A DNA stretch of 64,000 nucleotides from Planctomycetota bacterium (GTDB taxonomy: Bacteria > Planctomycetota > UBA1135 > GCA-002686595): NCBI GenBank assembly GCA_044359355.1, contig JBIKMH010000014.1, positions 1-64,000 of the forward strand, written 5' to 3'. The translations under genes were made by a program, and so were the position numbers. Within the stretch, counting starts at the first letter, position 1; every line of letters begins with the position of its first letter. The notes below the pieces were generated by a model. That model saw nothing but the letters and a program-made list of their open reading frames with translations, made no database searches and was not told the DNA's origin. Below are positions 1 through 55,315 of the stretch, piece by piece.

Positions 1-153
1 TCGGCGCCCGGATGAGCGGCAGCGGACCGCGCTGGGAGGCCGTGCGCGGGCTGTTCGATCTGCAATGCCGCCGACTGGGGCTCAACCCGCGCGCGGAAGC
101 GAAGGCGTTCGAGGAGCCGATGAAGCCGCAGGGAAAACAGGGAGAGCTTTTCT
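1..153 (+). CDS. 3' end of an upstream gene (partial, hypothetical)
   Basis: Open frame enters the window and ends at TAG 151-153 (...EEPMKPQGKQGELF*). No recognisable motif. Confidence 0.3.
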
Positions 154-918
154 AGGCAGCCAACTCCAACAAGGCGCCCCCCGGTAGCGAGCTCAAAAGA
201 CCAGCCCGAGCGACACAATCAAGGTTGGTTCGCTTCTTTCTCATCGACAGAGTCCGCCCACAGCACTCGCACCTCTGGAACGACAGGCAACTGTTCATCC
301 CAAGGGATCTGCGCGGCGATGCCAGCACCGTACAGCCAGGCATCGGTTTGGAGGATGTCGAAGAGATCGCTGTCCGCCTCCCCGTCCTCATCTCTCCACT
401 CTCCCGGACAGGACCGTCCACCACGCAGCGTGGCCGTCACAGTCCGTTCATCCGCACAGGGAAAGGCCCACACCACGGGCAGCCACAGGATGGTCGGCGA
501 TGCCAACTCGATGGTCGGATCAACCGACAACGCCTGCGTTTCCGGTAGAAACAACCTGACAGGAGGGGACAGAGCAGTGCCACCCGGGTTAGCGCACCCT
601 GACAACCTGGATACGGCAGGACACGAAGGGTTGCCATGCCCCTCCGATGCTATCCACGGGCGGAATTCCCGATCCCGCGGCAATGGGCGTAGCCGGGTTG
701 AGAAAACGAGGTGCGGTTGAAAGCGAGCACTCGCCTTCCTTGACCTGCATCGAGCAGTTGCCTTGCGGCCAGGCGAACGTGCACGAGAGGGTCACTTTCC
801 AAAAGCCAACCTTGCATTCAGTCCTGTTCGGACCTTGAGGGCTTTTTCTCGCCTTCCTGACGAAGGGTGCCTGCGCATTTGTCATCATACCTGTGGATCC
901 GCTGCCGCTTCCCACCCC

Positions 919-2664
919 ATGGACGCACACCACACTCCCGCGCCCGGCCTATCCACCACTCAGGCGCGCCCCATGGCCACTTGGAGCGCAGGCATGGACC
1001 TGCGTGCGATCGCCTCGGAATTCGGCACGCCGCTGTATCTGCACCACGCCAAGAGCCTCGAGGCAGCCTTCAAAGCCTACGCCGCGCTGGTTGGCCCCGC
1101 AGGCGTGCGCTATCCGGTCAAGGCCAATCCCTCACCCGTGGTGCTGGAGAGCATCGCACGACTCGGCGGCGGTGCGGACTGTGCTTCACGGCCTGAGGTG
1201 CAGGCTGCACTGGCGGCGGGCATTCCCATGCAGCGCATCAGCTACAACACACCGGCTCCCAGCCTTGAGTTGGCAGCCGGGCTTCTGCGCAGGGGCGCCA
1301 CCGTGGTTGCCGACAACCCGGAGATGCTGTGCGAACTCGAAGCCTGCCTGACTGCGGGCGAGCTCATGGGCCAACTGTTCGTGCGCGTGAATCCCGGGCA
1401 GCTGCCGGGCTACATCGCGGGTGGTGAGCACCAACGCTACACGGCGCATGGCGATCCACGATCCCAGTTCGGAATTCCATCGGAAGACCTGCTGCCCATC
1501 CTGAAGTCCACGCAACTCCCGATCCGCGGACTGCATGTGCATGTCGGCACGATGATGGACAACCTCGCGGCCTTCACCGAGTGCCTCGAGTTCCTGCACG
1601 CGCTCGTCGACAGTGTGCGAGCTTCGACACACCACGATCCTCGCACGATCAACCTCGGAGGCGGACTGGGCCTGCCCCATGACCGCACCCAGATCCATCC
1701 GAGCATCGAGGCCTTCGCGCAGGAGTTGCGAGGACGGCTGCGGCCCGAGCTCACCTACGAGTTGGAGCCCGGCAATTCACTGGTTGGCGACAGCTTCGCG
1801 CTGTTGACACGAATTGTGGCCATCAAGCATGCGCGTGGGCGAACCTGGGGTATCTGTGATGTGGGTACGGACCAGTTGGTGAAGCATACGGTGGCGGGCT
1901 GGCGCCACGAGATCGTGGATGCCGACCATCAGCGCCTGGCTTGCTCGGGTCCGGACTCACTGGCCGGGCCGCTGTGCTTCGCAGGCGACCTCCTGCTGCC
2001 CGCCACTGATCTCAGGGGTGCCAGGGCAGGTGATCCCCTGCTGGTCCGCCAGACGGGCGCGTATTGCGAGGCCATCGCGAGCCGTTTCAATGGCCGTCTC
2101 GGCCCGGCAACCGTGCTGGTCGAGAACGGGCGTGTGGTTGGAATCGCACAGGCTCGGGAGGATGCATTCTTTGCTGCCACCGCATCACATTCCCGGCCCA
2201 TCGTCACGCCTGAAAGGAGTTCGCCAGCCGAGCCGTTGCAGCCGACGCATGTGCAGTCACTGCAGAGCGCCTATATGCACCGACTCGCCCGCGAAGACAC
2301 CTATGAGATCGGCCCGGCGCGCCGGATCGGTCCGGGAACCTACGAGTTCCAAGTGAGCGTCGATGCTCCCTGTGGCTTCGTCGGCATGCCGTTGGCTGTT
2401 CGAGTGCTCGGTGATGCTTCGATCATCGCCATCGGGCTGGAATTGGGCTGGAAGGCCAAGCAAGGCGCTGTGCTCGCGAGCCGATTGACGCTCAGCTTCG
2501 AGAAGTCGCTCCCGGGCAAGGGCGTATTCCCCTGCCGTGTCGCCGTGAGCGCGCTCAGTCCGGCTGGGAGCGATGGTGCCAACCTGGTTGGAAGCGTGCG
2601 CTTCGAGTTGGGCGAGGGGGCAGGCATTCACGGTACGGCGCAGGTGAGTGCGCCGGCGAGCTAG
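919..2664 (+). CDS. PLP-dependent decarboxylase, Orn/DAP/Arg decarboxylase family (diaminopimelate decarboxylase-like) with a ~150-190 aa C-terminal extension of unknown function
   Basis: ORF 763-2664 with internal ATG at 919 (MDAHH...). Motifs [29 protein letters not shown] and [10 protein letters not shown] are typical of the fold-III LysA/ODC family. The tail after about aa 430 has no recognisable motif. Confidence 0.75.
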
Positions 2665-2858
2665 GCCAATTCCTTCGACGGCACGCGCACCACGAGGACG
2701 GGCACTTCGGCGTGGCGCAGCACGTTCTCGGCGACCGACCCGAGCAGCATGCGGCCCAACCCGGAGCGTCCGTGCGAAGCCAGCGCGATCAGATCCGCGC
2801 CCGTCTCCTTCGCGATCTCGCAGATGCGCGAGGAGGCCAAGGCCTTCGACGAAGCCAA
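2661..2858 (-). pseudogene. Universal stress protein C-terminal fragment (truncated paralog of usp at 7063-7572)
   Basis: 65-aa ORF whose last ~55 aa ([54 protein letters not shown]) are near-identical to the C-terminus of the full Usp. About 175 nt at ~90% nucleotide identity; the N-terminal two-thirds of a Usp domain are absent. Confidence 0.7.
2664..2838. repeat. Direct repeat copy A (usp 3' segment), paired with 7066-7240
   Basis: An ~83-nt identical run (tccttcgacggcacgcgcaccacgaggacgggcacttcggcgtggcgcagcacgttctcggcgaccgacccgagcagcatgcg) followed by gradually diverging sequence. Confidence 0.8.
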
Positions 2859-2905
2859 GCCTCACCCCAGACCCCGGCAGGGCGAGTTGTTCTAGACAGA
2901 TTGCG

Positions 2906-3370
2906 TCAGGCGCCTTCGCTCGCGCTCACCTGCCGACCTTTGCGCCGCACGAGCACGCCGAAGGCGCATCCGAGCAACACGGCGGGCACCAGACCGACAT
3001 ACAGCACCCACAGCAGCGGACCCAACAGCGCTTCGAGCACGCTCGCCGGCGTCGAAAGGAGGATCCGGCCCTGCGCCCAGTCGATTCCGATCTGCACGAG
3101 CGCCCCCGTCAGCGTAGCTCCGATCACGCTTCCCAGCGCGACCACGATTCCCAGAAGTGCGGCCTGAAACAGCGCGGCGCGCTGCAGATGCGGGGAATAG
3201 ACACCCGCCAGCCAGCGTGCAAGGGCGAGCGCCACCACGCTGCCCGTCGCAATCGAAACGGGGAGCGACGCGAGCAAACCCTGCATGCCCATCGCGAACA
3301 GCAGCGCTGCGCCCAATCCCAGGCCCGCCAGCGCGAACCCGGTCGCGGCGCGGACGCTGTAGCGCTTCAC
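2906..3370 (-). CDS. Small polytopic membrane protein (hypothetical), last gene of the flotillin operon
   Basis: 154 aa with four hydrophobic segments. Its start overlaps the flotillin stop by 4 nt. Confidence 0.55.
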   Translation of the reverse strand: MKRYSVRAATGFALAGLGLGAALLFAMGMQGLLASLPVSIATGSVVALALARWLAGVYSPHLQRAALFQAALLGIVVALGSVIGATLTGALVQIGIDWAQGRILLSTPASVLEALLGPLLWVLYVGLVPAVLLGCAFGVLVRRKGRQVSASEGA

Positions 3371-4983
3371 GCCTTGGGCGCTTCGGCCTTCGCAGGAGAA
3401 GTGGTGGCCGCCTCCGAGCCGTCTGCCGAGGAGGGGGCCGCCGGGTTCTCCGTCATCAGTTTGCCGAAGTACTCCGGCATCTTGACGCCGCCGACCTCGC
3501 TCATCATCTGCATCATGGGAGGCAGCGAGCCCGCCAGCGAGTGCAGGAAATTCGTGGTCGCGTTGCGGCCGTCCTTGCCGACCCCGCCGTCCCAGACCAC
3601 CACCTTGTCGAACTTGACATTCGAAATCGCCGTGGCGGCCGTCTTGGAGAGCTCTTCCATCTTCTCCAGCATCAGCATCTGGAAGGCCTGCTCGGCGCCG
3701 CCGCAGGCTTGGATGATCGCCCGCAGACCCTCGCCCTTCTTCGCGAGCATCTCGTACTCGCCACGCGCCTGCGCCTCCAGACGGGCGTACATGGCGGCTG
3801 CCTCCGCCTGAGCTTCGATGCGCTGACGCTCCGCCTGCGCCTCCGCTTCGATGATGACCTGCGACTTCACGGCGCGAGCCAGCGCTTCGAGTTCGGCGCG
3901 CTTTTCGGCTTCGATTTTCTTGGCTTGAGCCTCGGCCGCGCGCGCCTGCGCCAGATACTGCGCCTCCAGCACGGCCGCCTGTGCTTCGCGCAGTCGCGTT
4001 TCCGAGAGCTGGTAGGCCTCTGCCTCGCGCACCTTGAGCGAAGCGTTGGAGGCCGCCATGTCGGCCTTGGACTTGTTTTCGCCGGTGACGGCCTCGGCAT
4101 CGGCCGCGGCCACCTGGATTCTCATGGCGCGCTGAGCGTCACGGACCTTGGCATCGCGCTCGAACTGCGCGGTCTGTTCGCCGATGGCGCGCTCCTTCTC
4201 CAGCTCGGCGATCTTGACGGCGCGCTCGCGCTCGGCCGATTTCGTGCCGATGTCGCGCAGCTTCTCGTTGTTCGAGACCTCGATGACGCGGTCGCGGTCA
4301 GCCTCGGCCACGCCGATGGCACCCTTCTTGACCTGCATCGCGACATCGATCTCGGCCTGCTGGATGGCTTCCGAAGCCGCCTTCTTGCCGATCGCCTCGA
4401 TGTAGCCCGATTCGTCGGTGATGTCCTTGATGTTGACGTTGATCAGCACGAGGCCGATCTTCTTCAACTCGGGTTCCAGCGAGTCCTGAATCTTGGAGAG
4501 GAACTGGTGGCGGTCGCGGTTGATCTCGTCGATGCGCATCGAGGCGATCACCTGGCGCAGCTGCCCGAAGATGATGTCCTCGGCCTGCTTGATGACCGCG
4601 GTGGTCTGCAGTCCCAAGAGACGCACGGCCGCGTTATTCATCGTCTCTTCGTCTGTGCCGATCGCAACGGTGAAGACGCTGGGCACATTAACACGGATGT
4701 TCTCGATCGAAAGCGCGCCCTGCAGCGGGATTTCGATTTGAACCGGATCCAGCGAGAGATACTCGAAGTTCTGGATCAACGGCCAGACGAACACGCCGCC
4801 GCCGTGGATGCACTTCGAGGACCGCCCAGTGCTGGTCCGGCCGTAGACGACCAGCACGCGGTTCGAGGGACAGCGCTTGTAGCGGCGGGCCACCACCAGC
4901 ATGAAGCTGATGAGCACCAATCCTCCGACGAGGATCATCAGCGCGATCGGGAGAAACTCGGAAAAGAGCGATTGAATATCCAT
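3367..4983 (-). CDS. Flotillin / SPFH (band-7) family protein, YqiK-like
   Basis: 538 aa: N-terminal TM, SPFH domain (PLIQNFEYLSLDPVQIEIP..., INVNIKDITD), then a long Ala/Glu-rich coiled-coil (EAQAKKIEAEKRAELEALARA). Confidence 0.9.
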   Translation of the reverse strand: MDIQSLFSEFLPIALMILVGGLVLISFMLVVARRYKRCPSNRVLVVYGRTSTGRSSKCIHGGGVFVWPLIQNFEYLSLDPVQIEIPLQGALSIENIRVNVPSVFTVAIGTDEETMNNAAVRLLGLQTTAVIKQAEDIIFGQLRQVIASMRIDEINRDRHQFLSKIQDSLEPELKKIGLVLINVNIKDITDESGYIEAIGKKAASEAIQQAEIDVAMQVKKGAIGVAEADRDRVIEVSNNEKLRDIGTKSAERERAVKIAELEKERAIGEQTAQFERDAKVRDAQRAMRIQVAAADAEAVTGENKSKADMAASNASLKVREAEAYQLSETRLREAQAAVLEAQYLAQARAAEAQAKKIEAEKRAELEALARAVKSQVIIEAEAQAERQRIEAQAEAAAMYARLEAQARGEYEMLAKKGEGLRAIIQACGGAEQAFQMLMLEKMEELSKTAATAISNVKFDKVVVWDGGVGKDGRNATTNFLHSLAGSLPPMMQMMSEVGGVKMPEYFGKLMTENPAAPSSADGSEAATTSPAKAEAPKA

Positions 4984-4987
4984 GGAT

Positions 4988-5566
4988 TCAGATGAGCGGC
5001 TCTACCTCGAAGGTGTCGAGCGTCAGTTGTTTGACGATGCGCACTTCGCTACCGGACTCGATGTCCCGGGCAGCACGGGTGCAGGCTTGGAACTCGCCCG
5101 TGCGGCCCTGCACGAGCACCTGAACTTTGCCTTTGCCGGTATTGTTGGCGGGAATGCGCAGGTAGACGCGCCCCACGAGCCCAACGGCGTTCTTCGTGTC
5201 CATGTTGCCGGCCGAGTGCAGTTTCTTCTGCATCGAGAACAGCCAGGCGACCGCCACCAGCATCACGGCGCCGGCTGCGACTCCGACCACCAGCGCCATG
5301 GCGTTGCTCGTCCCCTGCGCCAAGGCAGTCCAGCCACCCAGACCGAAGAAGCAGAAGAAGCTCGCCACGGAGCGCACCGAGAGCAGGCCCAGACCCTCGC
5401 CGTCGTGCACCTCGCCGCTTCCGGAGTGACCGATCTCGGGCAGGCCTTCGCCGAGCGCATCCCCGCCATCGTCGTGACCAAACAGCAGCATCACCGTCTG
5501 GACCAGCAGAATCAGCCCGCCGAGCGCAGCACAGCCAAGGAACACGGTCAGGAGCGAGAGATCCAT
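4988..5566 (-). CDS. NfeD-like membrane protein (YqiJ-like partner of flotillin)
   Basis: Internal ATG at 5566 (MDLSLL...). N-terminal TM helices plus a C-terminal OB-fold-like segment (GRVYLRIP...VQVLVQGRTGEFQA...VRIVKQ). Lies immediately upstream of flotillin in the classic nfeD-flotillin pairing. Confidence 0.75.
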   Translation of the reverse strand: MDLSLLTVFLGCAALGGLILLVQTVMLLFGHDDGGDALGEGLPEIGHSGSGEVHDGEGLGLLSVRSVASFFCFFGLGGWTALAQGTSNAMALVVGVAAGAVMLVAVAWLFSMQKKLHSAGNMDTKNAVGLVGRVYLRIPANNTGKGKVQVLVQGRTGEFQACTRAARDIESGSEVRIVKQLTLDTFEVEPLI

Positions 5567-5864
5567 GCGTCGAGGTCGCGGCAGCGGCGGGGGGAGGATA
5601 CTCACCCAACAGCGACGAATTCAAAGTTTTTTGCGCCCGGGGGAGCGCAATCCTCTCCACTGCAGCCCTCTGGCTTTCGGATCGAGGCTCATCGGCGGGT
5701 TCCCAAGGCCGCTTCGAGAACTGAGGAAACGCGCCTTCACCGTTCGGAAGCGGCGCCCGCTCTCCAACGTGCAGACCCGCCGATGGGAGGGCCGCAGCGA
5801 TTGGCCGAAGGACTCTGTAAATGTCCGTGAGTTTGGAGCCGTTTTTCCATTTGAGGTGCTGGAG

Positions 5865-7049
5865 ATGCTCCCCGCAATGATGCCCGCCCCGCACACCCTG
5901 TTGGTTTTCCTCCTTCTGCTCTGCTGCCTGCCTGCACACGCGCAGCAGAAGGCCAGTGGTCCTGCCCGCCCTGCCAAGAACGGCACGGGCGCGCTGATCG
6001 GCAAGAAGGTGGTACCCTTTGCCGAGTTGCCGGCAGAACTCTCCGACAACGCCCGGCGGGCTTTGCAGCGCGTGCGCCCCTACTGCGAGGCGCAGGGCCT
6101 CGTGGCGCTGCCCGATCCCGACCTGCGCTTTGTGATGCTCGTGCCGGAGAACAACCGCAGCGCGCAGAAGCTGTTCCAGCAGGCCTGCGAAACGGCGGAC
6201 TGGTTCGACGAGCGCCTCCCGGAGACTGCCAACCAGATGCCTGCGCAACCGGAAGGCACCTGGCAGGACGATGCCTTCACGCCCAACACCGAAGTCGCCG
6301 TGCTGCACATCCTGCGCAATGAGGGTGAGCAGGCCGCCCTGCTGTCCCAGATGGCCGAGGAGCAAACTGACCTGTCGATCTGGGCGCGCAGTGCGAGCCA
6401 GATGCTGGGTTTCACGCTGCTTCGGCCCTTGTGCGCGGCGATCGTGATGGAGGCGGAGGGCAACGAGGAGTGGAGTCCCGAGCATGAGCTGGCGAACCGT
6501 CTCACCCAGCTTCTGCTGCAGCGCCGCTTCGGTCAGCAGCCCTACTGGCTGCGCCAGGGCATCGCCTGGTGCGCCGAGTGGCGCCTCAACTCGGAGCTTT
6601 ACTGTTTCCCCTACCGCAAGGAATTCGTGCCGCGCGCGGAGCACGGTGCCTGGGCGCTGGAAGCCAAGGTCCTCTTTCAAAAGCGCGCCAGCATCGCCGT
6701 GAGCCTCGAGGAGCTGCACGAGTGCCAAAGCGGATCCTGGAATGGTCCAGCTGCGCGCAAGGCCTTCGGCGTCGCCGGCTACCTGCTGAGCCGGAATCCG
6801 GCGGAACTCTCGGCCGCGCTCGAGGCCCTGCGCGTGCACCGCGAACTCGACAACCGCGCGACGCGCGCCGATGGATCGTGGAGCCGCATTCCAGGCTACG
6901 AGGTCTCTGGCGCGGATCTCGACCGCATTCTCGGGGCGCAACTCGGGTCCGAATGGCGCTCGGCCGCAACGGCGCATGTCGCCAGCGGCGGAAAGCAGAG
7001 CCGCCGCGCCATGACGGGCAAGGTCAGAACCGCGCCCAAGGGCCGCTAG
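5865..7049 (+). CDS. Secreted hypothetical protein, DUF1570-like (degenerate metallopeptidase-like motif)
   Basis: ATG at 5865 gives a signal peptide (MLPAMMPAPHTLLVFLLLLCCLPAHAQQ). Motif HELANRLTQLL...QPYWLRQGIAWCAE resembles the DUF1570 HExxH...PxWLxEGLA signature but with catalytic residues replaced. Confidence 0.5.
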   Translation: MLPAMMPAPHTLLVFLLLLCCLPAHAQQKASGPARPAKNGTGALIGKKVVPFAELPAELSDNARRALQRVRPYCEAQGLVALPDPDLRFVMLVPENNRSAQKLFQQACETADWFDERLPETANQMPAQPEGTWQDDAFTPNTEVAVLHILRNEGEQAALLSQMAEEQTDLSIWARSASQMLGFTLLRPLCAAIVMEAEGNEEWSPEHELANRLTQLLLQRRFGQQPYWLRQGIAWCAEWRLNSELYCFPYRKEFVPRAEHGAWALEAKVLFQKRASIAVSLEELHECQSGSWNGPAARKAFGVAGYLLSRNPAELSAALEALRVHRELDNRATRADGSWSRIPGYEVSGADLDRILGAQLGSEWRSAATAHVASGGKQSRRAMTGKVRTAPKGR

Positions 7050-7062
7050 CCAGAACAGGTGA

Positions 7063-7551
7063 CTAGCTGAGATCCTTCGACGGCACGCGCACCACGAGGA
7101 CGGGCACTTCGGCGTGGCGCAGCACGTTCTCGGCGACCGACCCGAGCAGCATGCGCCCCAGCCCGGATCGCCCGTGCGATGCCAGTGCGATCAGATCCGC
7201 TCCCGTCTCCTTGGCAAGCTCGCAGATGCGTGTCGACACTTTGCCCGCGGGGGCATCGATGACGTGCACTTTGAGCTCCACGCCCACGGGTGCCGGGCAC
7301 TCGCGCGTCAGCCGGGCGATGCCATCCTCGGCAATGGCGTAGGCCTTGGCGCGCTCCTCGGGCGTGCGACTGGTGGTCGAATAATGCGCGTACATCGGGT
7401 TGGGCACATCCGGCTGCTCGATCACCTGCAGCAGGTGCACCACCCCGCCGCCCTTCAACAGTGCATAGGCATGGGGCAGGGAGCGGGCGCCGCGGGCGGA
7501 GAGGTCGACGGGGACGAGGATCTGCTTGTAGCTGGGAAGGGCGGTGGTCAT
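7063..7551 (-). CDS. Universal stress protein (UspA family)
   Basis: KQILVPVDLS..., ...[48 protein letters not shown] precedes the ATG at 7551; an alternative start is at 7572. Confidence 0.85.
   Translation of the reverse strand: MTTALPSYKQILVPVDLSARGARSLPHAYALLKGGGVVHLLQVIEQPDVPNPMYAHYSTTSRTPEERAKAYAIAEDGIARLTRECPAPVGVELKVHVIDAPAGKVSTRICELAKETGADLIALASHGRSGLGRMLLGSVAENVLRHAEVPVLVVRVPSKDLS
7066..7240. repeat. Direct repeat copy B (usp 3' segment), paired with 2664-2838
   Basis: Same sequence as copy A. The two copies bracket the ~4.4 kb flotillin/NfeD/DUF1570 block. Confidence 0.8.
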
Positions 7552-7645
7552 GGAGGGGGGTCCTTTCTCCATTCATTGAAGACCTCGGCCTTCGCAAGCG
7601 CCGTACAGCGCAGTCCGTATGCAGACCCCCGACTTGTGCGCAGCT

Positions 7646-8134
7646 CTACCAGCGATGGAAGGCGGGATGGCCGGGCGGAACGGCCACGAACACGCCCCGG
7701 CAGGTGGAGGTCAGCTTGCCACCGCTGCTGAGCGTCGCTTCCACCACCGCGCGATCGGCACTCGACTCCACCACGACGGCTTCGAGATGCACCGGAGCAT
7801 TCGAAGGCGTCGGGCGCCTGAGCTTGACATGGAATTCGCTCGTGACCGTGCTCGGCACGCTTGTCGCGCCGGACTGCTGCATCAGATGGTGCGCCGCGGT
7901 CCAGTTGGAGTGGCAATCGAGCAAGGCTCCGACGATGCCGCCGTTGAGCACGCCGGGAAAGGCCTCGTGATGCGCCTGTGGCATCCACTCGGCGATGACC
8001 TTGTCGCCTTCGACGATGGAGCGGATGCGCAGGCCTTGGTCGTTGGCTGGGCCGCAGCCAAAGCAGCGGCTCAGCGGAGCGTGGAGTTCCTGGAGGCTTT
8101 GACTCATGGCGATGAGATGAGGCGCATAGGCCAT
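7646..8134 (-). CDS. Hotdog-fold thioesterase (PaaI/4HBT superfamily)
   Basis: CFGCGPANDQGLRI... and LNGGIVGALLDCHSNWTAA motifs. Its start overlaps the upstream gene's stop (TGATG). Confidence 0.65.
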   Translation of the reverse strand: MAYAPHLIAMSQSLQELHAPLSRCFGCGPANDQGLRIRSIVEGDKVIAEWMPQAHHEAFPGVLNGGIVGALLDCHSNWTAAHHLMQQSGATSVPSTVTSEFHVKLRRPTPSNAPVHLEAVVVESSADRAVVEATLSSGGKLTSTCRGVFVAVPPGHPAFHRW

Positions 8135-9753
8135 CACAAGCTGCGTTTCAAAGCAACCTCGATGATGCGGGTCTCGCCCTGGGGCAGCGCAAGGAGTTCC
8201 AGCCGTTCCTCCCATGGCTCGCATTGATAGGCATTGACCTGCAGGGTGGCGGGTCCGGCCGGCATCTCAAAGCGGGTCCAGGGGCTTGAGATCACCATGC
8301 CTCCGGTTTGAACGCGGGCCTTGTGGTCCGGATCACAGATCCACTGGACACCGACGGTGCCCGTGAGAATTCCCGGCGGGGCCTTGACGAGCAGTTGCAC
8401 GGGAACGAATTCGTGCAAGAGCTCGACCTCGACGACCTGCTCGGGTTGGTCGATGACGATCTCCTGATTCTTGAACTTCTGCTTGAGCGGGTCGCGCAGC
8501 ACCTTGAGGCGGTACGTTCCGTAGGGCACGCGCATCACTTGCTTGCTATCGATGGCTTTGCTGAAGGAAAAGCCAAGACTCGCCGGAACGAGGTGGAAGC
8601 CCTCGCAAGCGATCAGGGTTCCGCTGGGATTGCGGAAGCGGAAAGTGACAAGGGAGCCTTCCGTGCGCGGCCCGAAGTCATGGGTGAAGTCGACCACCAT
8701 GGGCTGGATGTCCTCGGTCAGCAGTTGCATGGGAACGTCGATTTCCCTGCGACCGTGCTCCACCAGCAGGACCTTGAGGGGAATGACCTGCGGAGTCTCG
8801 CTCACGGACCTGACAGCCCCCACGAACACTTTGCCGTCGGGAAAGCGCTCCTGGAGCCGCTGGCGAGCGGAATCCATGCTGTAGGAGTGCGGAGTGGGCA
8901 CGACCAAGCCGGCGTTGCCCTCCCAGTTGTAGTTGAAGATCTGGTCACCCTTGATCTGAAGCACGGCTGCCGTCAGAGGAACCATCACGACTTCGAGTTT
9001 GGGCCCTGGCACATCCACGGTCAGGAGCTGGCGGTCGAGCACCTCGTAGTACTCGGAGCGCACGCCGATGAGGTACTTGCCGCGGCTCAACCCCCGTGCC
9101 AGCGCCTCCCCCGAACCATTCGTGAGCACCGAATGCTGGCTGCACTCCGAGTCAAGACCGTCCAGCAACTGATCGTCATGCCCCGCCGTGATGGCATCCC
9201 GGGTGATCTCCTGGCGGGCGAGCATCACCGTGACATCAGGAATCGGGGTTCCCAATGGATCCCTGACGCTGATTTCCAGCCGTTCTTCCGGTTCCAGTTG
9301 GACCACAACCTCTGCTTGCCCGTCCGAGGGCCATTCCGCAGTCCGGGAGCGATACCCAAGGGCGCGGACACCGAGCACCGTGTCTTCCGTGGGCTCGAAG
9401 GCGATTCGTGCAACACCCAGATGGTTCGTACGAACCGCTTGCAGTTCCAGTTGGACCGGAATGCTGCGGGCAAAGCGGGTCACCGGGCAGACGCGGGCAT
9501 CTGGGATCGGCGCTCCGGCGCTGTCCTTGACGAGTACGGTCAGGCTGGCAGGTTTTCCGTCGTCCGGTTCACCGCGCTGTGCGGAAGTCGGCGTGCTCTG
9601 CAACTCATTGCCCTGAGGGCTCGCCGCCGGCAGCAATCTCGACGGGGCAGAATTGGATTCCATCTCCGCGGGGTCCGCGGATCGCGCGAACAACCAGACG
9701 ACGAGGATACTTGCCACGAGCAGCGAGGCGACGAGCCAGCGACGATGATTCAT
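8134..9753 (-). CDS. Membrane-anchored or secreted protein with CarboxypepD_reg-like beta-sandwich repeats (hypothetical)
   Basis: N-terminal signal anchor (MNHRRWLVASLLVASILVVWLFA). Repeated segments of the type VLVKDSAGAPIPDARV, EISVRDPLGTPIPDVTV. Confidence 0.6.
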   Translation of the reverse strand: MNHRRWLVASLLVASILVVWLFARSADPAEMESNSAPSRLLPAASPQGNELQSTPTSAQRGEPDDGKPASLTVLVKDSAGAPIPDARVCPVTRFARSIPVQLELQAVRTNHLGVARIAFEPTEDTVLGVRALGYRSRTAEWPSDGQAEVVVQLEPEERLEISVRDPLGTPIPDVTVMLARQEITRDAITAGHDDQLLDGLDSECSQHSVLTNGSGEALARGLSRGKYLIGVRSEYYEVLDRQLLTVDVPGPKLEVVMVPLTAAVLQIKGDQIFNYNWEGNAGLVVPTPHSYSMDSARQRLQERFPDGKVFVGAVRSVSETPQVIPLKVLLVEHGRREIDVPMQLLTEDIQPMVVDFTHDFGPRTEGSLVTFRFRNPSGTLIACEGFHLVPASLGFSFSKAIDSKQVMRVPYGTYRLKVLRDPLKQKFKNQEIVIDQPEQVVEVELLHEFVPVQLLVKAPPGILTGTVGVQWICDPDHKARVQTGGMVISSPWTRFEMPAGPATLQVNAYQCEPWEERLELLALPQGETRIIEVALKRSL

Positions 9754-9824
9754 GTTTCACGGGGTAAACAGGGCTGCATGACTGCGGGATGCAGTCCAGA
9801 AGCAGGTCAGCGGATCCGGGAAGT

Positions 9825-9899
9825 TGGTGGGCGACACAGGACTCGAACCTGTAACTTCCACGATGTGAACATGGCACTCTGCCATTGAGTTAGTCGCCC
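9825..9899 (-). tRNA. tRNA-Val (anticodon CAC)
   Basis: Manual cloverleaf: acceptor GGGCGAC/GTCGCCC, D stem ACTC/GAGT, anticodon stem CCATG/CGTGG with loop TTCACAT, T arm ACAGG-TTCGAGT-CCTGT, discriminator A, encoded CCA. Coordinates were cross-checked against an overlapping ORF's codons. Confidence 0.85.
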
Positions 9900-51099: not shown

Positions 51100-51199
51100 G
51101 GCGGGCGGGAAAGGGTCCGGGAATCCTGCGCAGCCAGTGGGCCGCAGCTTGAGGCCAGGTTGGTCCGCAACGGGGATTGTGCTAGAATTCCGCGCAGTT

Positions 51200-51275
51200 G
51201 CGGGCGTAACTCAGTTGGTAGAGTGTCAGCTTCCCAAGCTGAATGTCGCGGGTTCGAACCCCGTCGCCCGCTCCA
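51200..51275 (+). tRNA. tRNA-Gly (anticodon CCC)
   Basis: GCGGGCG/CGCCCGC acceptor, ACTC-AGTTGGTA-GAGT D arm, TCAGC-TTCCCAA-GCTGA anticodon arm, GCGGG-TTCGAAC-CCCGT T arm, encoded CCA. Position cross-checked against an overlapping ORF's codons. Confidence 0.9.
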
Positions 51276-51280
51276 AGCTT

Positions 51281-51725
51281 TCGGCGGTTGACACTGTCCA
51301 TCGTGTACTTCACATCGAGGCCGGTGTGGACATTGTCCTCGATCGAAGTGATGTTCGAGTTGCGGTCGTAGGTGATGACCGTTTGGTAGAGATCGCGGTC
51401 GGTCGCCAAATCCTTCGTCCAGCGATTCGTGGTGATGCGGTTGAAGCGATCCAGATCCACGATGGCGTTCGTGCCATCGTACACGCGTGAGAAACACGCA
51501 ATGGCGTTCAAGCGCGTACGGACTAGGGTGCCAACACCCAAGTATTCATACTGCGCAATCGTCACCCCACTGCCCGTATCCTCCACGACCGTCGAGACCC
51601 GCGAGGCCTCATCATCATGGAGACCGCCTGAGGTGCGGTAGGTGTAGGAGATCGAACGACTGCCGGAAAGGACCATGTTCGTCTCGCGCAGGGTTCGTCG
51701 CTCTCACCCAAGCGTACGGGACCTC
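51281..51725 (-). pseudogene. Orphan RHS core fragment (partial duplicate of rhs 53880-54300)
   Basis: About 445 nt at ~90% identity to an internal YD-repeat region of the rhs gene. It encodes SISYTYRTSGGLHD...ITYDRNSNITSIEDNVHTGLDVKYTMD with no rhs N-terminus, core end or toxin. Begins ~6 nt after the tRNA-Gly CCA. Confidence 0.75.
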
Positions 51726-51758: not shown

Positions 51759-52304
51759 TCAGAAATCACTTGATATTCGCCCGAGTCCTTCAAAGTACCG
51801 CAATTCATCCTCACGAAGCCTACGCTGAAAAACCCCGGAGGCGAAAACTCCGGAAGCTTCTCTATTCACTTCATGTTGTGAAGTCCAGAACACCTGTGGA
51901 CCATCGAACACTTCGTCGTCGGTATGAGCTAGGTGCACATCGGTTGAATAAGAAATCAATCTTTCGATCAGCCCATCCGTCGTGTAGTAGCGCCACTGCC
52001 CAACACGACGATAGGACGGGTTCAGACTTGGGTTGCTCGGCCACCACTGACCTTGACTCTGAAGGCTTCCATTTTCATGCCATTGTTTCCAGACTCCGAT
52101 CTTTCCCCACAACGGGTAATCTGTCTGTACATCGATTATTCGATATTCGCCACCTTGCTCTTTGAGTACCCCTGATGGCCAGCGAGTTTCGTGCCAGCGC
52201 ACACGGTCGACGGCCGTCGAGGCTCCCGAATACGACGAATCAAGGATGACAACGATCGCGCAAATGCTCAGCGCGCCAAACAAGACCTTTATCACGGTGC
52301 TCAT
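51759..52304 (-). CDS. Putative RHS immunity protein, membrane-anchored MORN-repeat (YwqK-like)
   Basis: ATG overlaps the rhs stop (caATGAgc). N-terminal TM (MSTVIKVLFGALSICAIVVIL); MORN-like repeats (GKIGVWKQWHENGSL, GQWRYYTTDGLIERLISY). GC content is visibly lower than the surrounding genome. Confidence 0.6.
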   Translation of the reverse strand: MSTVIKVLFGALSICAIVVILDSSYSGASTAVDRVRWHETRWPSGVLKEQGGEYRIIDVQTDYPLWGKIGVWKQWHENGSLQSQGQWWPSNPSLNPSYRRVGQWRYYTTDGLIERLISYSTDVHLAHTDDEVFDGPQVFWTSQHEVNREASGVFASGVFQRRLREDELRYFEGLGRISSDF

Positions 52305-55300
52305 TGGTTTACCTTGCAATCTCTCGTGTACTTCGCGACATCCTCCGCAGATGGGGTGCTTGTTGGTTTTTGTTCGAATCCATTACCAGAGAAATAAGGG
52401 GTGCACTGCTCACTGCAGCTCGCATGCCACCATGCGTAATACCAGTGAATGGGATACCAAGCACACCTTTGAGTCGAACCACACTGGCAGCACACTAGAA
52501 TATCGTCGCAATCGGCCCATACAAGAATTGGATCTTCATTGATGTACTTCACGCACCGATCCTTCTGTCCAGGCCAAGTATGACCCCAGATGTAATATGT
52601 CGATATACACGCACAATCCCCCGTCCCCGTAGGTCCGCCCCCTTCAGTTTCCTCCGAGTGCTCGTTGGTTATTGGTCGAAGGGGAGCGTTACTGCGGCGC
52701 ATAACGTGACGACCGATGGAATGATCGAGCTCGGAGGTAAGAAGGCTGGTTCCCGTCGGCCACGCGCCCTCAGTGAAGTTGGCAATCATCTGAGTATACA
52801 TTTGAGTTGAACAACGTAGCGGATCCCTTCTCCCCCACCTTCCCAGCTCCGCCATCAACACCCGATTGCGTGCGAGCCACTGGCTGCCAGCGAGGTTCGT
52901 CAACCCTTCATATCCCGCATAGCCCTTGCGGCTAGCCACCCCATTTGAGCTCAATACGCCTCGACCCAGCGTGATTCCTTGGTAGTTCGTCTGCAGCTCG
53001 CTCTTGTCGCTCGCATCGACATCACCATCCAGATCGACATCCCCGCGCACATCGTAAGCACTGGCCGTGATCCAGGTCTGCACCTGCGTGATGTCGGTCG
53101 CGTCGCAGTCGCCATCGGAGTCGGTGTCGCCACCAGGCAGCCCGATCGGGATGCCGTAGCTTGAGTACTTGACCCACTCCTTCAGCAGCCCGTTACCGCT
53201 CACCACCGCCGACACATCCGCGCGCCAGTTTTGCAGTAGGTAGTTGCGCTCTTCCAGCGTGCCATCGCTCGCGGCCGTCCAAGCGGTGTCCGCATCACGG
53301 TTCCTACAGATGACCAGATCGATGTAGCTCGATCCGCCCTGGCCGCTGGCTCCCGCTTGGTGCGGCACGAAGTCTTCCTTAGGGGCAGTATCGCTCTCCC
53401 CGAAGCGTGCAAGGAGCCGCCAGCGCTCATCAAACGCGTCGTAGTACCACTTGTCGTTGCTATCGACATCCCCATCGGTGTCGCTGTCCTCATGCACCCC
53501 GATGCGGTGGTTCAAGGCGTTGTAGCGGTACTCAGCAACAAGCGCTTGGGTAGAGGTGTTCTTGACCTTGCGCAAGCGGTAGAAGGCGTCGTACTCGTAC
53601 TCGTAGTGCTCGCCATCGTCGCTCAGATTTCCCGCCGCGTCGTAGGTGAGCGTGAAGTTGTTCGTGGCGTTGGAATCGGTGTCCCTAGCCGTCAGTTCAT
53701 TGACCGCGTTGTGAGTGCGGGTGTCGTCGTGCTCGCTGGTGTCGCTGAAGTCACCATCACCGTTGAGATCGAGCTTCTCCCGAGCCCAGTTGCCCGTGTG
53801 GCTCAAGGTCCACTGCTGATCCCGCGTCTTGCTGGTGATCGAGCCCGAGCTGAGTGTACCTTCTTCCGCTTGGATCAAGCGGTTGACGTTGTCCATCGTG
53901 TACTTCACATCGAGGCCGGTGTGGACATTGTCCTCGATCGAAGTGATGTTCGAGTTGCGGTCGTAGGTGATGACCGTCTGGTAGAGATCGCGATCGGTGG
54001 AGAGGTCTTTGGTCCAGCGATTGGTGGTGATGCGGTTGAAGCGATCCAGATCCACGATGGCGTTCGAGCCATCGTACACGCGTGAAAAGCACGCAATGGC
54101 GTTCAAGCGCGTGCGCACCAGAGTGCTGGTGCCTAAGTAGTCGTACTGCGCAATCGTCACCCCACTGCCCGTATCATCCACGACCGTCGAGACCCGCGAG
54201 GCCTCCTCATCGTGGAGACCGCCTGAGGTGCGGTAGGTGTAGGAGATCGAACGACTGCTGGGAAGCACCATGTTCGTCTTGCGCAGGGTGTTGCGACCAT
54301 TTGTCGCTTTCACCCAGGCATAGCTCACATCGTACTCGTCTCCCCCAGATGCGGCTACGGCTGAATTTCGATCTTGTTCAAAGCGCTCGAGGTTGGCCCA
54401 AGCGTCGTAGCTGTACCTGACCCCGTCCGTGGCGTTCCCAGCGGTGGTGGCGTCGTACTGCACGGCAGTGGCAAGGCGCCCAAGTGCGTCGTAGCTCCAC
54501 CCCTGGCGCCGCACCGCCCCATCAAAGCCCGAGGCAAGCGTCGAGACCACCTTCTTCACCATCCGACCGGCGCTGTCGTACTCCGTCTCGTAGACATTCC
54601 CTGACTGGTCCGACTTCCAGGTCTCCTGGCCTTGGGCGTTGTAGGCAAAGCTGACCACATCGCTGGAGCCTGAGGAGTCGGGGTAGGTGACGGTATCCGG
54701 AAGGTCATTGCGGGCAATGGCCGAATCCCCAGCCCCGCTGCCCTTGCTCGTACCGAAGCTGTAGGTGGTGACCTGATCCGCCTCAGGGCTGGGTAGGTCC
54801 GCCGTCAACGCCGTGCGCAAGCCGTCGGTGTAGCTGGTGATCAGCGCCACATCGTCTGCAGCACCCGAGGGCACCCCATCGACATAGTTTTGGATCTCCT
54901 TGGTGCGCCGGCCGAGGGCGTCGTACTCGTACTTGCGTACGAGGTTGAGAGGGTCGGTCACCGACTCCAGGCGCCCATCGGTTCCATAGGCGTTGGTGCT
55001 GCGCAGCGCGGTATCCGAGCGCGCGGGAGCAGTGGAAGGACGCGTCCAGGTCGCACCGCCATAGGTCCCGTACTCCACGCGGTCCACCTGACGCTCGACA
55101 CGGTCGTACCAGTAGGCACTGATCTGCACCCGGCCCTTGAGATCGCTCGCGGTGAGCGTCAGCGGGTCTAGGTCAGCATTGGTATCGAGCTTGCCGGTTG
55201 TCTCGCCGGTTGAGATGTCGCTGTGCAGGCGATCGAGCCGAGCCTCAAACAGCACCACGCCACTGGTCGTGCTTGCTGGGCGCGCCCCCCCCCGCTCCCA

Positions 55301-55315
55301 ACCCCGGGTCGGCAA
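52301..55315 (-). CDS. RHS-repeat (YD-repeat) polymorphic toxin, N-terminally truncated, with a Cys-rich C-terminal domain of unknown function
   Basis: 1004 aa from a TTG start directly after an in-frame stop. YD repeats throughout; RHS core end ...LMAELGRWGRRDPL; ~195-aa C-terminal tail rich in Cys/Trp/Tyr/His (CACISTYYIWGHTWPG...ILVCCQCGSTQRCAWYPIHWYYAWWHASCSEQC) with no known toxin motif. No PAAR or secretion N-domain. G9 tract 12 nt into the ORF. Confidence 0.85.
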   Translation of the reverse strand: MPTRGWERGGARPASTTSGVVLFEARLDRLHSDISTGETTGKLDTNADLDPLTLTASDLKGRVQISAYWYDRVERQVDRVEYGTYGGATWTRPSTAPARSDTALRSTNAYGTDGRLESVTDPLNLVRKYEYDALGRRTKEIQNYVDGVPSGAADDVALITSYTDGLRTALTADLPSPEADQVTTYSFGTSKGSGAGDSAIARNDLPDTVTYPDSSGSSDVVSFAYNAQGQETWKSDQSGNVYETEYDSAGRMVKKVVSTLASGFDGAVRRQGWSYDALGRLATAVQYDATTAGNATDGVRYSYDAWANLERFEQDRNSAVAASGGDEYDVSYAWVKATNGRNTLRKTNMVLPSSRSISYTYRTSGGLHDEEASRVSTVVDDTGSGVTIAQYDYLGTSTLVRTRLNAIACFSRVYDGSNAIVDLDRFNRITTNRWTKDLSTDRDLYQTVITYDRNSNITSIEDNVHTGLDVKYTMDNVNRLIQAEEGTLSSGSITSKTRDQQWTLSHTGNWAREKLDLNGDGDFSDTSEHDDTRTHNAVNELTARDTDSNATNNFTLTYDAAGNLSDDGEHYEYEYDAFYRLRKVKNTSTQALVAEYRYNALNHRIGVHEDSDTDGDVDSNDKWYYDAFDERWRLLARFGESDTAPKEDFVPHQAGASGQGGSSYIDLVICRNRDADTAWTAASDGTLEERNYLLQNWRADVSAVVSGNGLLKEWVKYSSYGIPIGLPGGDTDSDGDCDATDITQVQTWITASAYDVRGDVDLDGDVDASDKSELQTNYQGITLGRGVLSSNGVASRKGYAGYEGLTNLAGSQWLARNRVLMAELGRWGRRDPLRCSTQMYTQMIANFTEGAWPTGTSLLTSELDHSIGRHVMRRSNAPLRPITNEHSEETEGGGPTGTGDCACISTYYIWGHTWPGQKDRCVKYINEDPILVWADCDDILVCCQCGSTQRCAWYPIHWYYAWWHASCSEQCTPYFSGNGFEQKPTSTPSAEDVAKYTRDCKVNQ

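Follow-up and report, generated by a model that had tools for sequence, protein, structure and literature searches.

A truncated usp copy beside the flotillin operon of a freshwater planctomycete as the scar of a duplicative joining event

The first 64,000 nucleotides of contig JBIKMH010000014.1 (GenBank assembly GCA_044359355.1), from a freshwater lineage of the Planctomycetota, carry two copies of the 3' end of a universal stress protein gene (usp), in direct orientation and with a flotillin operon between them. This whole stretch is called the window in the following. One of the copies (copy B) is part of a complete usp gene, and the other (copy A, or usp') is truncated. The question that this locus raises is where the truncated copy came from, and which of the segments around it was moved. 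Copy A can be regarded with high confidence as a non-functional remnant of the usp 3' end and as the scar of a single duplicative event, in which usp was joined illegitimately to the tail of another gene, here called gene Y. With the same confidence, it is not a paralogue that decayed in place, not the end of a mobile element and not a structured RNA. It is an ordinary kind of genome scar, left by a known type of event. As to what was moved, the comparison with related sequences points more to the segment with a decarboxylase gene and the usp 3' end, rather than the flotillin block, as the inserted or foreign piece.

The repeated usp end

The direct repeat obtained with a repeat search covers 2671-2828 and 7073-7230 (158 nt, 94% identity, spacing 4402). 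When the usp homology is counted from the TAG stop that both copies have in common, it covers 2661-2828 and 7063-7230, which gives 168 nt with 15 differences (91% identity). These copies contain a core of 83 nt without any mismatch (2671-2753 and 7073-7155), which occurs twice in the window and nowhere else in it, compared with zero expected occurrences (100 shuffles). The repeat is also recovered when the window is searched against itself with BLAST (E = 1e-62). A direct repeat with an 83-nt identical core had been described in an earlier note on this DNA, and the repeat search, the self-comparison and the shuffles bear it out, at 168 nt and 91%.

Copy B (7063-7230, minus strand, core at 7073-7155) lies inside the full usp gene (7063-7551, minus strand), which is called in metagenomes as a protein of 162 amino acids and matches the Pfam Usp profile (PF00582) over positions 2-141 of 141, with NCBIfam in agreement; its open reading frame (ORF) remains open to 7572. 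Copy A (2661-2828, minus strand) consists of the stop and the last 55 codons of usp, without the 5' two-thirds of the gene, and matches the same profile over positions 93-141 of 141 (E = 5e-20). By sequence homology copy A belongs to the Usp family, being 93% identical to residues 113-169 of the neighbouring usp, and the motif G-x2-G-x9-G(S/T), which defines the nucleotide-binding loop of Usp proteins, is still legible in its C-terminal sequence. The complete alpha/beta domain of about 140 residues is not present; homology stops at the Arg codon at 2826-2828. A truncated usp had previously been placed at 2661-2858, of which the last 55 codons (2661-2828) are confirmed and the 10 N-terminal codons of the ORF proved not to be usp. 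No third usp-like sequence was found in the 64-kb window with TBLASTN.

Within the species, copy A shows no variation, as all strains read are identical there. A variant of the fragment with 59 amino acids (P0152) was considered as an 18-nt deletion and was rejected, being the same DNA with a later TTG start. A structured RNA or terminator in the repeat was also rejected, with no match in Rfam and fold z-scores of -1.19 and +0.68, which do not surpass those of shuffled sequences, and no terminator-like site was found near 2661-2900 or 7049-7235.

The two copies differ outside the core at 10 synonymous positions among about 23.5 synonymous sites, corresponding to a synonymous divergence (dS) of about 0.6. 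Inside the core no differences are present, although usp differs from that of a sister species at 7 positions there (one-sided Fisher P ~0.02). For this reason the core looks as if it was homogenised by gene conversion or was the site of a crossover, and the tract in copy A (2671-2753) is probably one or the other.

Gene order in relatives and the joint between usp and gene Y

The locus was compared with related Planctomycetota contigs from public metagenomes. A flotillin identical to that of the window is present on 18 metagenome contigs, and the 8 loci fetched show 100% identity to the window throughout their overlap with its first 12 kb. In the sister species (L014/L051, L037-L046, L050 and L055; flotillin 98% identical), OYE and gene Y, which encodes a PA0069-family radical-SAM protein, are convergent with the flotillin operon (gene M, flotillin and gene N), and from N the genes P and D diverge and run towards usp, H, C and ecf on the opposite strand. 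D is the decarboxylase gene and H is a hotdog gene. In the present genome, Y is followed by a stretch of 810 nt and by D, which converges on usp'; then come a relic of the Y tail on the plus strand, the oppositely oriented M-flotillin-N operon and the divergent P, which converges on usp and H. In BLASTN comparisons with the sister, 964-2830 aligns as one collinear unit of D and the usp 3' end (69.7%), 2868-7009 as M-flotillin-N-P (89.8%) and 7063-9527 as usp-H-C (88%). Copy A is collinear with D across the D-usp junction of the sister, and D with its attached usp end stands on the other side of the flotillin block than it does there.

In an outgroup with a Y that is 85% identical (L056-L058), OYE and Y converge on usp, H and ecf, with nothing between Y and usp and with stops 3 nt apart. 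In deeper outgroups (L063 and L064), Y converges on 4HBT and H, or on H and ecf. Orthologues of usp adjoin H in the sister and in the outgroup. As the gene sets differ among the lineages, the site where Y and H converge is a variable hotspot. The sister has a single usp, which adjoins the decarboxylase, and no fragment, which argues for a rearrangement scar instead of decay in place. A second full usp was not found in the sister, the outgroups or the window. The earlier note had proposed such a scar, with a relative carrying a full-length second usp at this place as the case that would speak for paralogue decay; its suggested comparison of synteny upholds the scar.

The joint is located at 2826-2828, as can be seen when the window, copy B and the sister Y tail are read three-way. 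On the plus strand, CTCGCAGATGCG is followed directly by CGAGGAGGCCAAGGCCTTCGAC across the joint. The sequence is like usp (copy B) as far as ATGCG, and from GCGCGAGG on the window matches the sister Y tail, with an overlap of 3 nt between the two parts. These bases, GCG, are common to the Arg codon of usp and to the Y tail, and thus the joint is illegitimate and mediated by microhomology, with a site inside usp fused to a site inside Y. The relic that starts here (2826-2895, plus strand) consists of the last 22 codons of Y, of the sister-like type. It was recognised with the help of a sister contig (L050), in which the same sequence is found just past the stop of M, and in the sister this sequence is the true C-terminus of Y (P0032, L055). 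The displaced tail adjoins the flotillin operon, a position that the intact Y occupies in the sister, and the segment of Y tail, 810 nt, D and usp' sits between the body of Y and the relic.

The functional Y of the window is represented by its 3' end (3-155, plus strand, TAG stop at 153-155), which was aligned to the full Y of contigs of the same species, the sister and the outgroup. Its last 21 codons form a tail that is not sister-like, and the site homologous to the scar junction lies at about 91-93. Before the tail, the functional Y differs from that of the sister at 4 of 88 nt (95.5% identity), followed by 6 differences in 27 nt, 4 of them synonymous. This switch starts at the position where the relic starts, and at each of these six sites the relic agrees with the sister. 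Aligned to the sister Y tail, the relic is exact over the first 23 aligned bases and identical at 61 of 67 aligned nt overall, with a 35-nt deletion. Aligned to this genome's own Y tails, it is identical at 48 of 56 and 48 of 61 nt (79-86%), with more indels. The body of Y is 89-95% identical to that of the sister, and the tail after the switch is short and variable in all lineages.

The composition of the ORF at 2661-2858 also bears on a possible role for the fragment. It has been considered that this ORF of 65 amino acids encodes a working small C-terminal Usp module, which shares its transcription with the flotillin operon and is maintained by selection, for instance for pairing with full-length Usp. 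The ORF has kept its frame and stop, it runs in the direction of the operon and lies 47 nt after M, and its product is annotated as a Usp protein in public metagenomes. The first 10 codons are the antisense of the Y relic, which means that the protein would begin with the remains of another gene, and the match to Pfam Usp (93-141 of 141) leaves out the first three strands of the fold. In addition, no counterpart is found in the sister or the outgroups, and the purine-rich run GGGGTGAGG, as read from the sequence, ends only 1 nt before the TTG start. The differences from copy B are mostly synonymous, as would be expected for a working protein, but this bias is explained by an origin in a working gene. 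A working protein is therefore very improbable.

The source of the inserted segment

What meets at the joint is precisely the end (usp 3') and the start (Y tail) of a segment that forms one contiguous piece in the sister; D with the usp 3' end is on the left of the joint and the Y tail with M is on its right. This arrangement could have been produced by an internal tandem duplication. A segment of 6.3 kb, from the Y tail through M, flotillin, N, P and D to codon 114 of usp, would have been duplicated head to tail at a microhomology joint, followed by reciprocal loss, of M-flotillin-N-P from the first copy and of D from the second, with usp' and the Y-tail relic staying at the joint. Gene-order change by duplication and random loss is a model that comes from mitochondrial genomics. 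This route requires no unsampled donor, and it fits with copies A and B being each other's closest relatives (15-18 differences between them, compared with 26-39 from each to the sister usp). It requires three events, however, and it predicts that D is an ordinary orthologue of the sister D.

The divergence of D is not that of an ordinary orthologue. D is about 70% identical to every homologue found, including that of the sister, and its tree is star-like. The D of the sister is closer (73%) to a D located between galactokinase and FGE-sulfatase genes than to the D of this genome. Measured against the sister, dS is 1.28 for D, 0.82 for P, 0.78 for usp, 0.59 for a dCMP deaminase gene, 0.57 for ecf, 0.51 for XdhC, 0.49 for a ligase gene, 0.47 for C, 0.43 for Y, 0.25 for H, 0.21 for M, 0.20 for OYE, 0.16 for flotillin and 0.13 for N. 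This makes D an outlier compared with the value of about 0.5 for the flanking genes.

For the DNA that precedes D, no counterpart was found. Homology to the decarboxylase region of the sister begins at 964, and the roughly 810 nt before it (156-963; lower GC content, 52-68%), which are apparently non-coding, gave no match to any fetched locus with BLASTN or TBLASTX and none in Rfam. After a tandem duplication, this stretch would stand in place of the first copy of M-flotillin-N-P. Relics of M, flotillin, N or P were searched for in it with BLASTN and TBLASTX, and none were found. Only implausible ORFs are present between 156 and 963, and the hypothetical proteins of 99 and 111 amino acids that are called there in public data look spurious.

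The changes in copy A also fit poorly with a tandem duplication, in which copy A would have been a pseudogene from birth. With the sister usp as outgroup, the changes specific to the lineage of copy A comprise 8 synonymous and 3 non-synonymous nucleotides (2 conservative residues), and this synonymous excess departs from neutral evolution (binomial P ~0.003 against 28% synonymous sites). Mostly synonymous changes would follow if copy A had evolved as part of a functional usp elsewhere, and are unexpected for a fragment that was dead from birth. Moreover, the relic of the Y tail is nearer to the tail of the sister than to this genome's own, and a second insertion at gene Y, described below, is not explained by such a route. 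A tandem duplication is therefore considered unlikely.

The second insertion is located just upstream of the window in some strains, which carry a gene for a Sel1/trypsin-like protease of 758 amino acids, with a full Y on one side and a displaced Y 3' fragment of 231 nt on the other (L001 14820-15050 and 17479-17709, equal to L061 1490-5162). The two Y copies are 95% identical, with 194 nt identical followed by 8 differences in the last 27 nt. The full Y ends here in a different tail, and the joint has a microhomology of 1 nt. In other strains of the same species this insert is not present and Y is followed directly by the 810 nt and D; both types co-occur in public metagenomes. The first 155 nt of the window correspond to the end of either Y or the displaced Y', and the window alone fits either strain type. 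The protease insertion is a second event of the same architecture at gene Y, polymorphic within the species.

In a further possible route, the flotillin block itself is the piece that was inserted. A donor fragment from a lineage with the order Y-M-flotillin-N-P-usp would have been circularised at the GCG, as Y tail-M-flotillin-N-P-usp 3' end, and integrated through a Campbell-type crossover in the usp 3' end of a genome with the order Y-810 nt-D-usp, by which the usp end was duplicated. Insertion of the block was one of the readings in the earlier note. The route yields the final structure in a single step, the 83-nt core would be the crossover site without a separate conversion, and both the relic of the Y tail and the 5' part of M, flotillin and N are sister-like.

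The junction expected for such a circle is found on one contig of 920 nt (L066; ENA ERZ27272075 k141_1766329), in which window positions 6538-7155 are joined to 2671-3055. This contig contains, in order, the P 3' end, the last usp codons of B type, the 83-nt core, A-type usp', the joint, the Y relic and the 3' end of M, and its single-nucleotide polymorphisms match a strain of the L060 type. In iterative assemblers, a repeat that is longer than the small k values can yield chimeric joins. Either the 4.4-kb block exists as a circle or in tandem duplication, or the contig is an assembly chimera. A chimera is at least as likely, since only one short contig shows the junction and the iterative assembler, presumably MEGAHIT to judge from the prefix 'k141', raised k to 141 from smaller values that fall below the 83 nt of the core. 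The deleted form of the block was found in none of the 21 D-encoding contigs read, all 21 of which keep usp'-M-flotillin-N-P-usp, and the hybrid full-length Usp that a deletion would leave (body of copy B, KELA end) was not found among about 15 billion proteins. It is plausible that the repeats are long enough for occasional deletion or duplication of the 4.4-kb block. Excision or duplication between the repeats, as suggested in the earlier note, therefore keeps its plausibility and the support of one short contig, with the reservations that this contig may be chimeric and that the deleted form was not found. That the usp ends are live recombination substrates in nature, with L066 real and the copy number of the flotillin operon varying in wild populations via the scar, is a tentative and rather unlikely idea.

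Another contig (L007; Logan SRR10955928_13709) covers window positions 2724-7102, with both of its ends lying exactly 30 nt within the 83-nt core. Such ends are the mark of a k = 31 graph that breaks at the repeat, and assemblies of the locus are fragmented by this repeat. The usp alleles in the cluster of window 7063-7551 are mosaic between lineages (P0165, P0168 and P0153), for example with a sister-type body and the C-terminal 30 residues of this genome. In the usp 3' end, 8 sites separate the sister strain L038 from the strains L050/L051 over 35 nt that otherwise match this genome exactly. This part of usp seems to recombine frequently.

Several observations argue against insertion of the flotillin block. 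The region from about 3060 to 5900 (5' part of M, flotillin, N and the divergent promoter region) is 90-99% identical to the sister, with flanks of 66-86%, and this tract stops short of the block ends: the 3' end of M is 67-79% and P is 71-86% identical to the sister. As the ends are not sister-like, the block was not imported recently and in its entirety from a sister-like source. The close tract, together with the close OYE and H, suggests that genes have recently passed between the two species in patches, or that codons are under strong constraint. Furthermore, the internal part of copy A is no closer to the sister than that of copy B (15 and 14 differences in 75 nt), and the foreignness of D and the jump in the Y tail at the start position of the relic would have to be unrelated coincidences.

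Signs of mobility are also absent from the block, in which searches of Pfam and NCBIfam gave no integrase or transposase; among M, flotillin, N, P, usp, D and the hotdog gene, they gave no integrase or recombinase. A mobile element was rejected, with neither such enzymes nor terminal inverted repeats present and with a block that is syntenic with the sister. A target-site duplication by a transposon or insertion sequence (2-14 bp) was rejected as well, given a repeat of 168 nt, no inverted repeats at the block ends and no transposase. Insertion of the flotillin block is accordingly regarded as distinctly unlikely, even more so than the tandem duplication. Of the earlier proposal that the block was inserted by a duplicative event, the duplicative event that made the repeat is retained, and the D segment is the likelier foreign piece. 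Descriptions in which the D segment or the flotillin block is inserted are topologically equivalent, and the tandem duplication leads to this topology as well.

The reading that is favoured here, with somewhat less than even confidence, is that the segment of Y tail, 810 nt, D and usp 3' end was imported from a third lineage and entered the Y tail by in-register repair, and that the 83-nt core afterwards underwent gene conversion. It is favoured because of the outlying dS and star-like tree of D, the orphan 810 nt, the switch in the Y tail, the mostly synonymous changes in copy A and the parallel of the Sel1/trypsin insertion. The recipient genome would have had Y convergent with M-flotillin-N, followed by the divergent P, possibly D, and usp. 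A break in the Y tail would have been repaired from a third, more divergent lineage with D between Y and usp. Copying would have started in register within Y and continued through the donor Y tail, the 810 nt, D and 168 nt of the donor usp, after which the copied strand would have been sealed to the other broken end through the GCG microhomology. This would be an event of the type known as homology-facilitated illegitimate recombination (HFIR), and GCG (2826-2828) falls within the 3-10 bp of microhomology at such joints. The D of the recipient between P and usp, if present, would have been lost afterwards. Two usp ends would remain as direct repeats around the flotillin block as a by-product, with the 83-nt tract homogenised later by gene conversion.

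A number of points weigh against import of the D segment. No genome with the donor order Y-810 nt-D-full A-type usp was found, nor was a full-length Usp with the C-terminus of copy A (11 candidates scored). Copies A and B have 16 states in common against the sister usp, which means that the donor was closer at usp than the divergence of D suggests, or that conversion extended beyond the 83-nt core. The comparison of the Y tails rests on about 60-70 nt with indels, and 61 of 67 versus 48 of 56 is by itself not significant. The divergence forms a mosaic along the locus, with M-flotillin-N, OYE and H far closer to the sister than the ligase gene, which makes the baseline uncertain. In addition, import needs extra steps, namely a gene conversion and either the loss of D from between P and usp or its absence there beforehand, and the HFIR route would presuppose natural competence or an equivalent way of DNA uptake in a lineage that is known only from metagenome-assembled genomes. 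A trace of a D deletion between P and usp was looked for in the 13-nt spacer there, which resembles the last 12 nt before the usp stop of the sister too weakly for use.

Genes of the locus, known systems and significance

The decarboxylase gene D (994-2664, plus strand) encodes a pyridoxal phosphate-dependent protein of the Orn/DAP/Arg-decarboxylase fold, according to Pfam and NCBIfam, followed by a conserved C-terminal domain of about 170 amino acids. Residues 1-554 align in every homologue, and this includes the C-terminal part (the last 174 residues, 2140-2661), for which no match was found in Pfam or among PDB sequences. Homologues with the extension include four in unrelated contexts, and the extension is a feature of the enzyme subfamily and not a product of the rearrangement. 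The link that the earlier note had drawn between this extension and the repeat junction is thereby lost. Here as in the sister, D and usp converge as neighbours, which is why D stops at the repeat; the TAG stop of D (2662-2664) overlaps the stop of usp' within CTAG.

In the bracketed block, M (2906-3370, minus strand) is an ORF for a membrane protein of 154 amino acids and is the last gene of the flotillin operon; its orthologue in the sister is convergent with Y. The flotillin gene (3367-4983, minus strand) encodes a FloT-like protein of the Band_7/SPFH type, as identified with Pfam and NCBIfam. Upstream of it, N (4988-5566, minus strand) encodes a membrane protein of 192 amino acids, which adjoins flotillin in 28 loci, has no match in Pfam, NCBIfam or PDB sequences, and is NfeD-like by position only. 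P (5877-7049, plus strand) encodes a secreted protein of 390 amino acids without a known domain and ends 13 nt before the usp stop; in the sister, D comes next. For the earlier label 'DUF1570-like', no support was found for P in Pfam, NCBIfam or PDB sequence searches. Of the gene block as first described, the positions, the flotillin and the Usp are confirmed, and the names NfeD and DUF1570-like have no support in these databases. Further downstream, the alignment to the sister breaks at about 9550-9816, between a CarboxypepD_reg gene and tRNA-Val (9825-9899) with an ECF sigma gene. The sister has about 1.2 kb between these genes, compared with about 220 nt here, and this is another indel near the locus.

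The locus can be compared with several known systems. HFIR has been described in the transformable bacteria Acinetobacter baylyi, Streptococcus pneumoniae and Pseudomonas stutzeri, in which a homologous anchor is combined with an illegitimate joint of 3-10 bp (PMC6382021). As in HFIR products, several kb of non-homologous DNA stand beside a conserved gene, and the far end is sealed at a microhomology, which is GCG here. The present event, in contrast, is read from comparative sequence. Also in contrast to HFIR, the recipient sequence at the joint is kept, which gives two short duplications (the Y tail and the usp 3' end), and the donor is unsampled.

Bacterial tandem duplications have been discussed in the literature (PMC3967940). 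The present locus resembles their joints in that the end and start of a segment contiguous in a relative are joined head to tail, with truncated genes at the joint. It differs in its divergence pattern, as D, the Y tail and the synonymous bias of the fragment do not fit with copies from one genome.

In the rhs and cdiA systems, recombination between orphan 3' fragments and the full gene can duplicate or delete the intervening DNA, with a repeat of 522 bp and 95% identity in Salmonella (PMC3967940). The likeness lies in a full gene and a downstream fragment from the conserved part of the same gene in direct orientation, left after new DNA replaced or extended the 3' region. Unlike rhs and cdiA, usp and Y are not polymorphic toxins, no logic of toxin and immunity is present, and the fragment is without obvious use. 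An RHS orphan is present in the window itself as a direct repeat (51182-51676 and 53879-54289; 411 nt, 91.7%, spacing 2595). It lies downstream of an RHS-repeat gene for 1004 amino acids (52301-55315, minus strand) and adjoins tRNA-Gly(CCC) (51200-51275), in the classic layout of a displaced rhs fragment.

The att duplications of integrative elements are also similar, as gene 3' ends bracket a block of several kb, with one of them completing the gene and the other truncated. In contrast to these, no integrase, excisionase or transposase is present in or beside the block. Furthermore, the joint is a 3-nt microhomology between two unrelated genes instead of a conserved core site, and the bracketed genes are syntenic with the sister.

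The comparison explains the origin of a fragment that is annotated as 'universal stress protein' in public metagenomes. The practical value of this is modest and consists of a warning that the fragment should not be taken for a gene, nor the block for a mobile element. For the biology of these bacteria, it identifies the region from Y to H as a hotspot, in which related freshwater Planctomycetota carry different gene sets. The two events of the same architecture at gene Y, one of them still polymorphic, would make the locus a natural and datable case of gene gain by one-sided homologous repair combined with microhomology joining in an uncultivated lineage.

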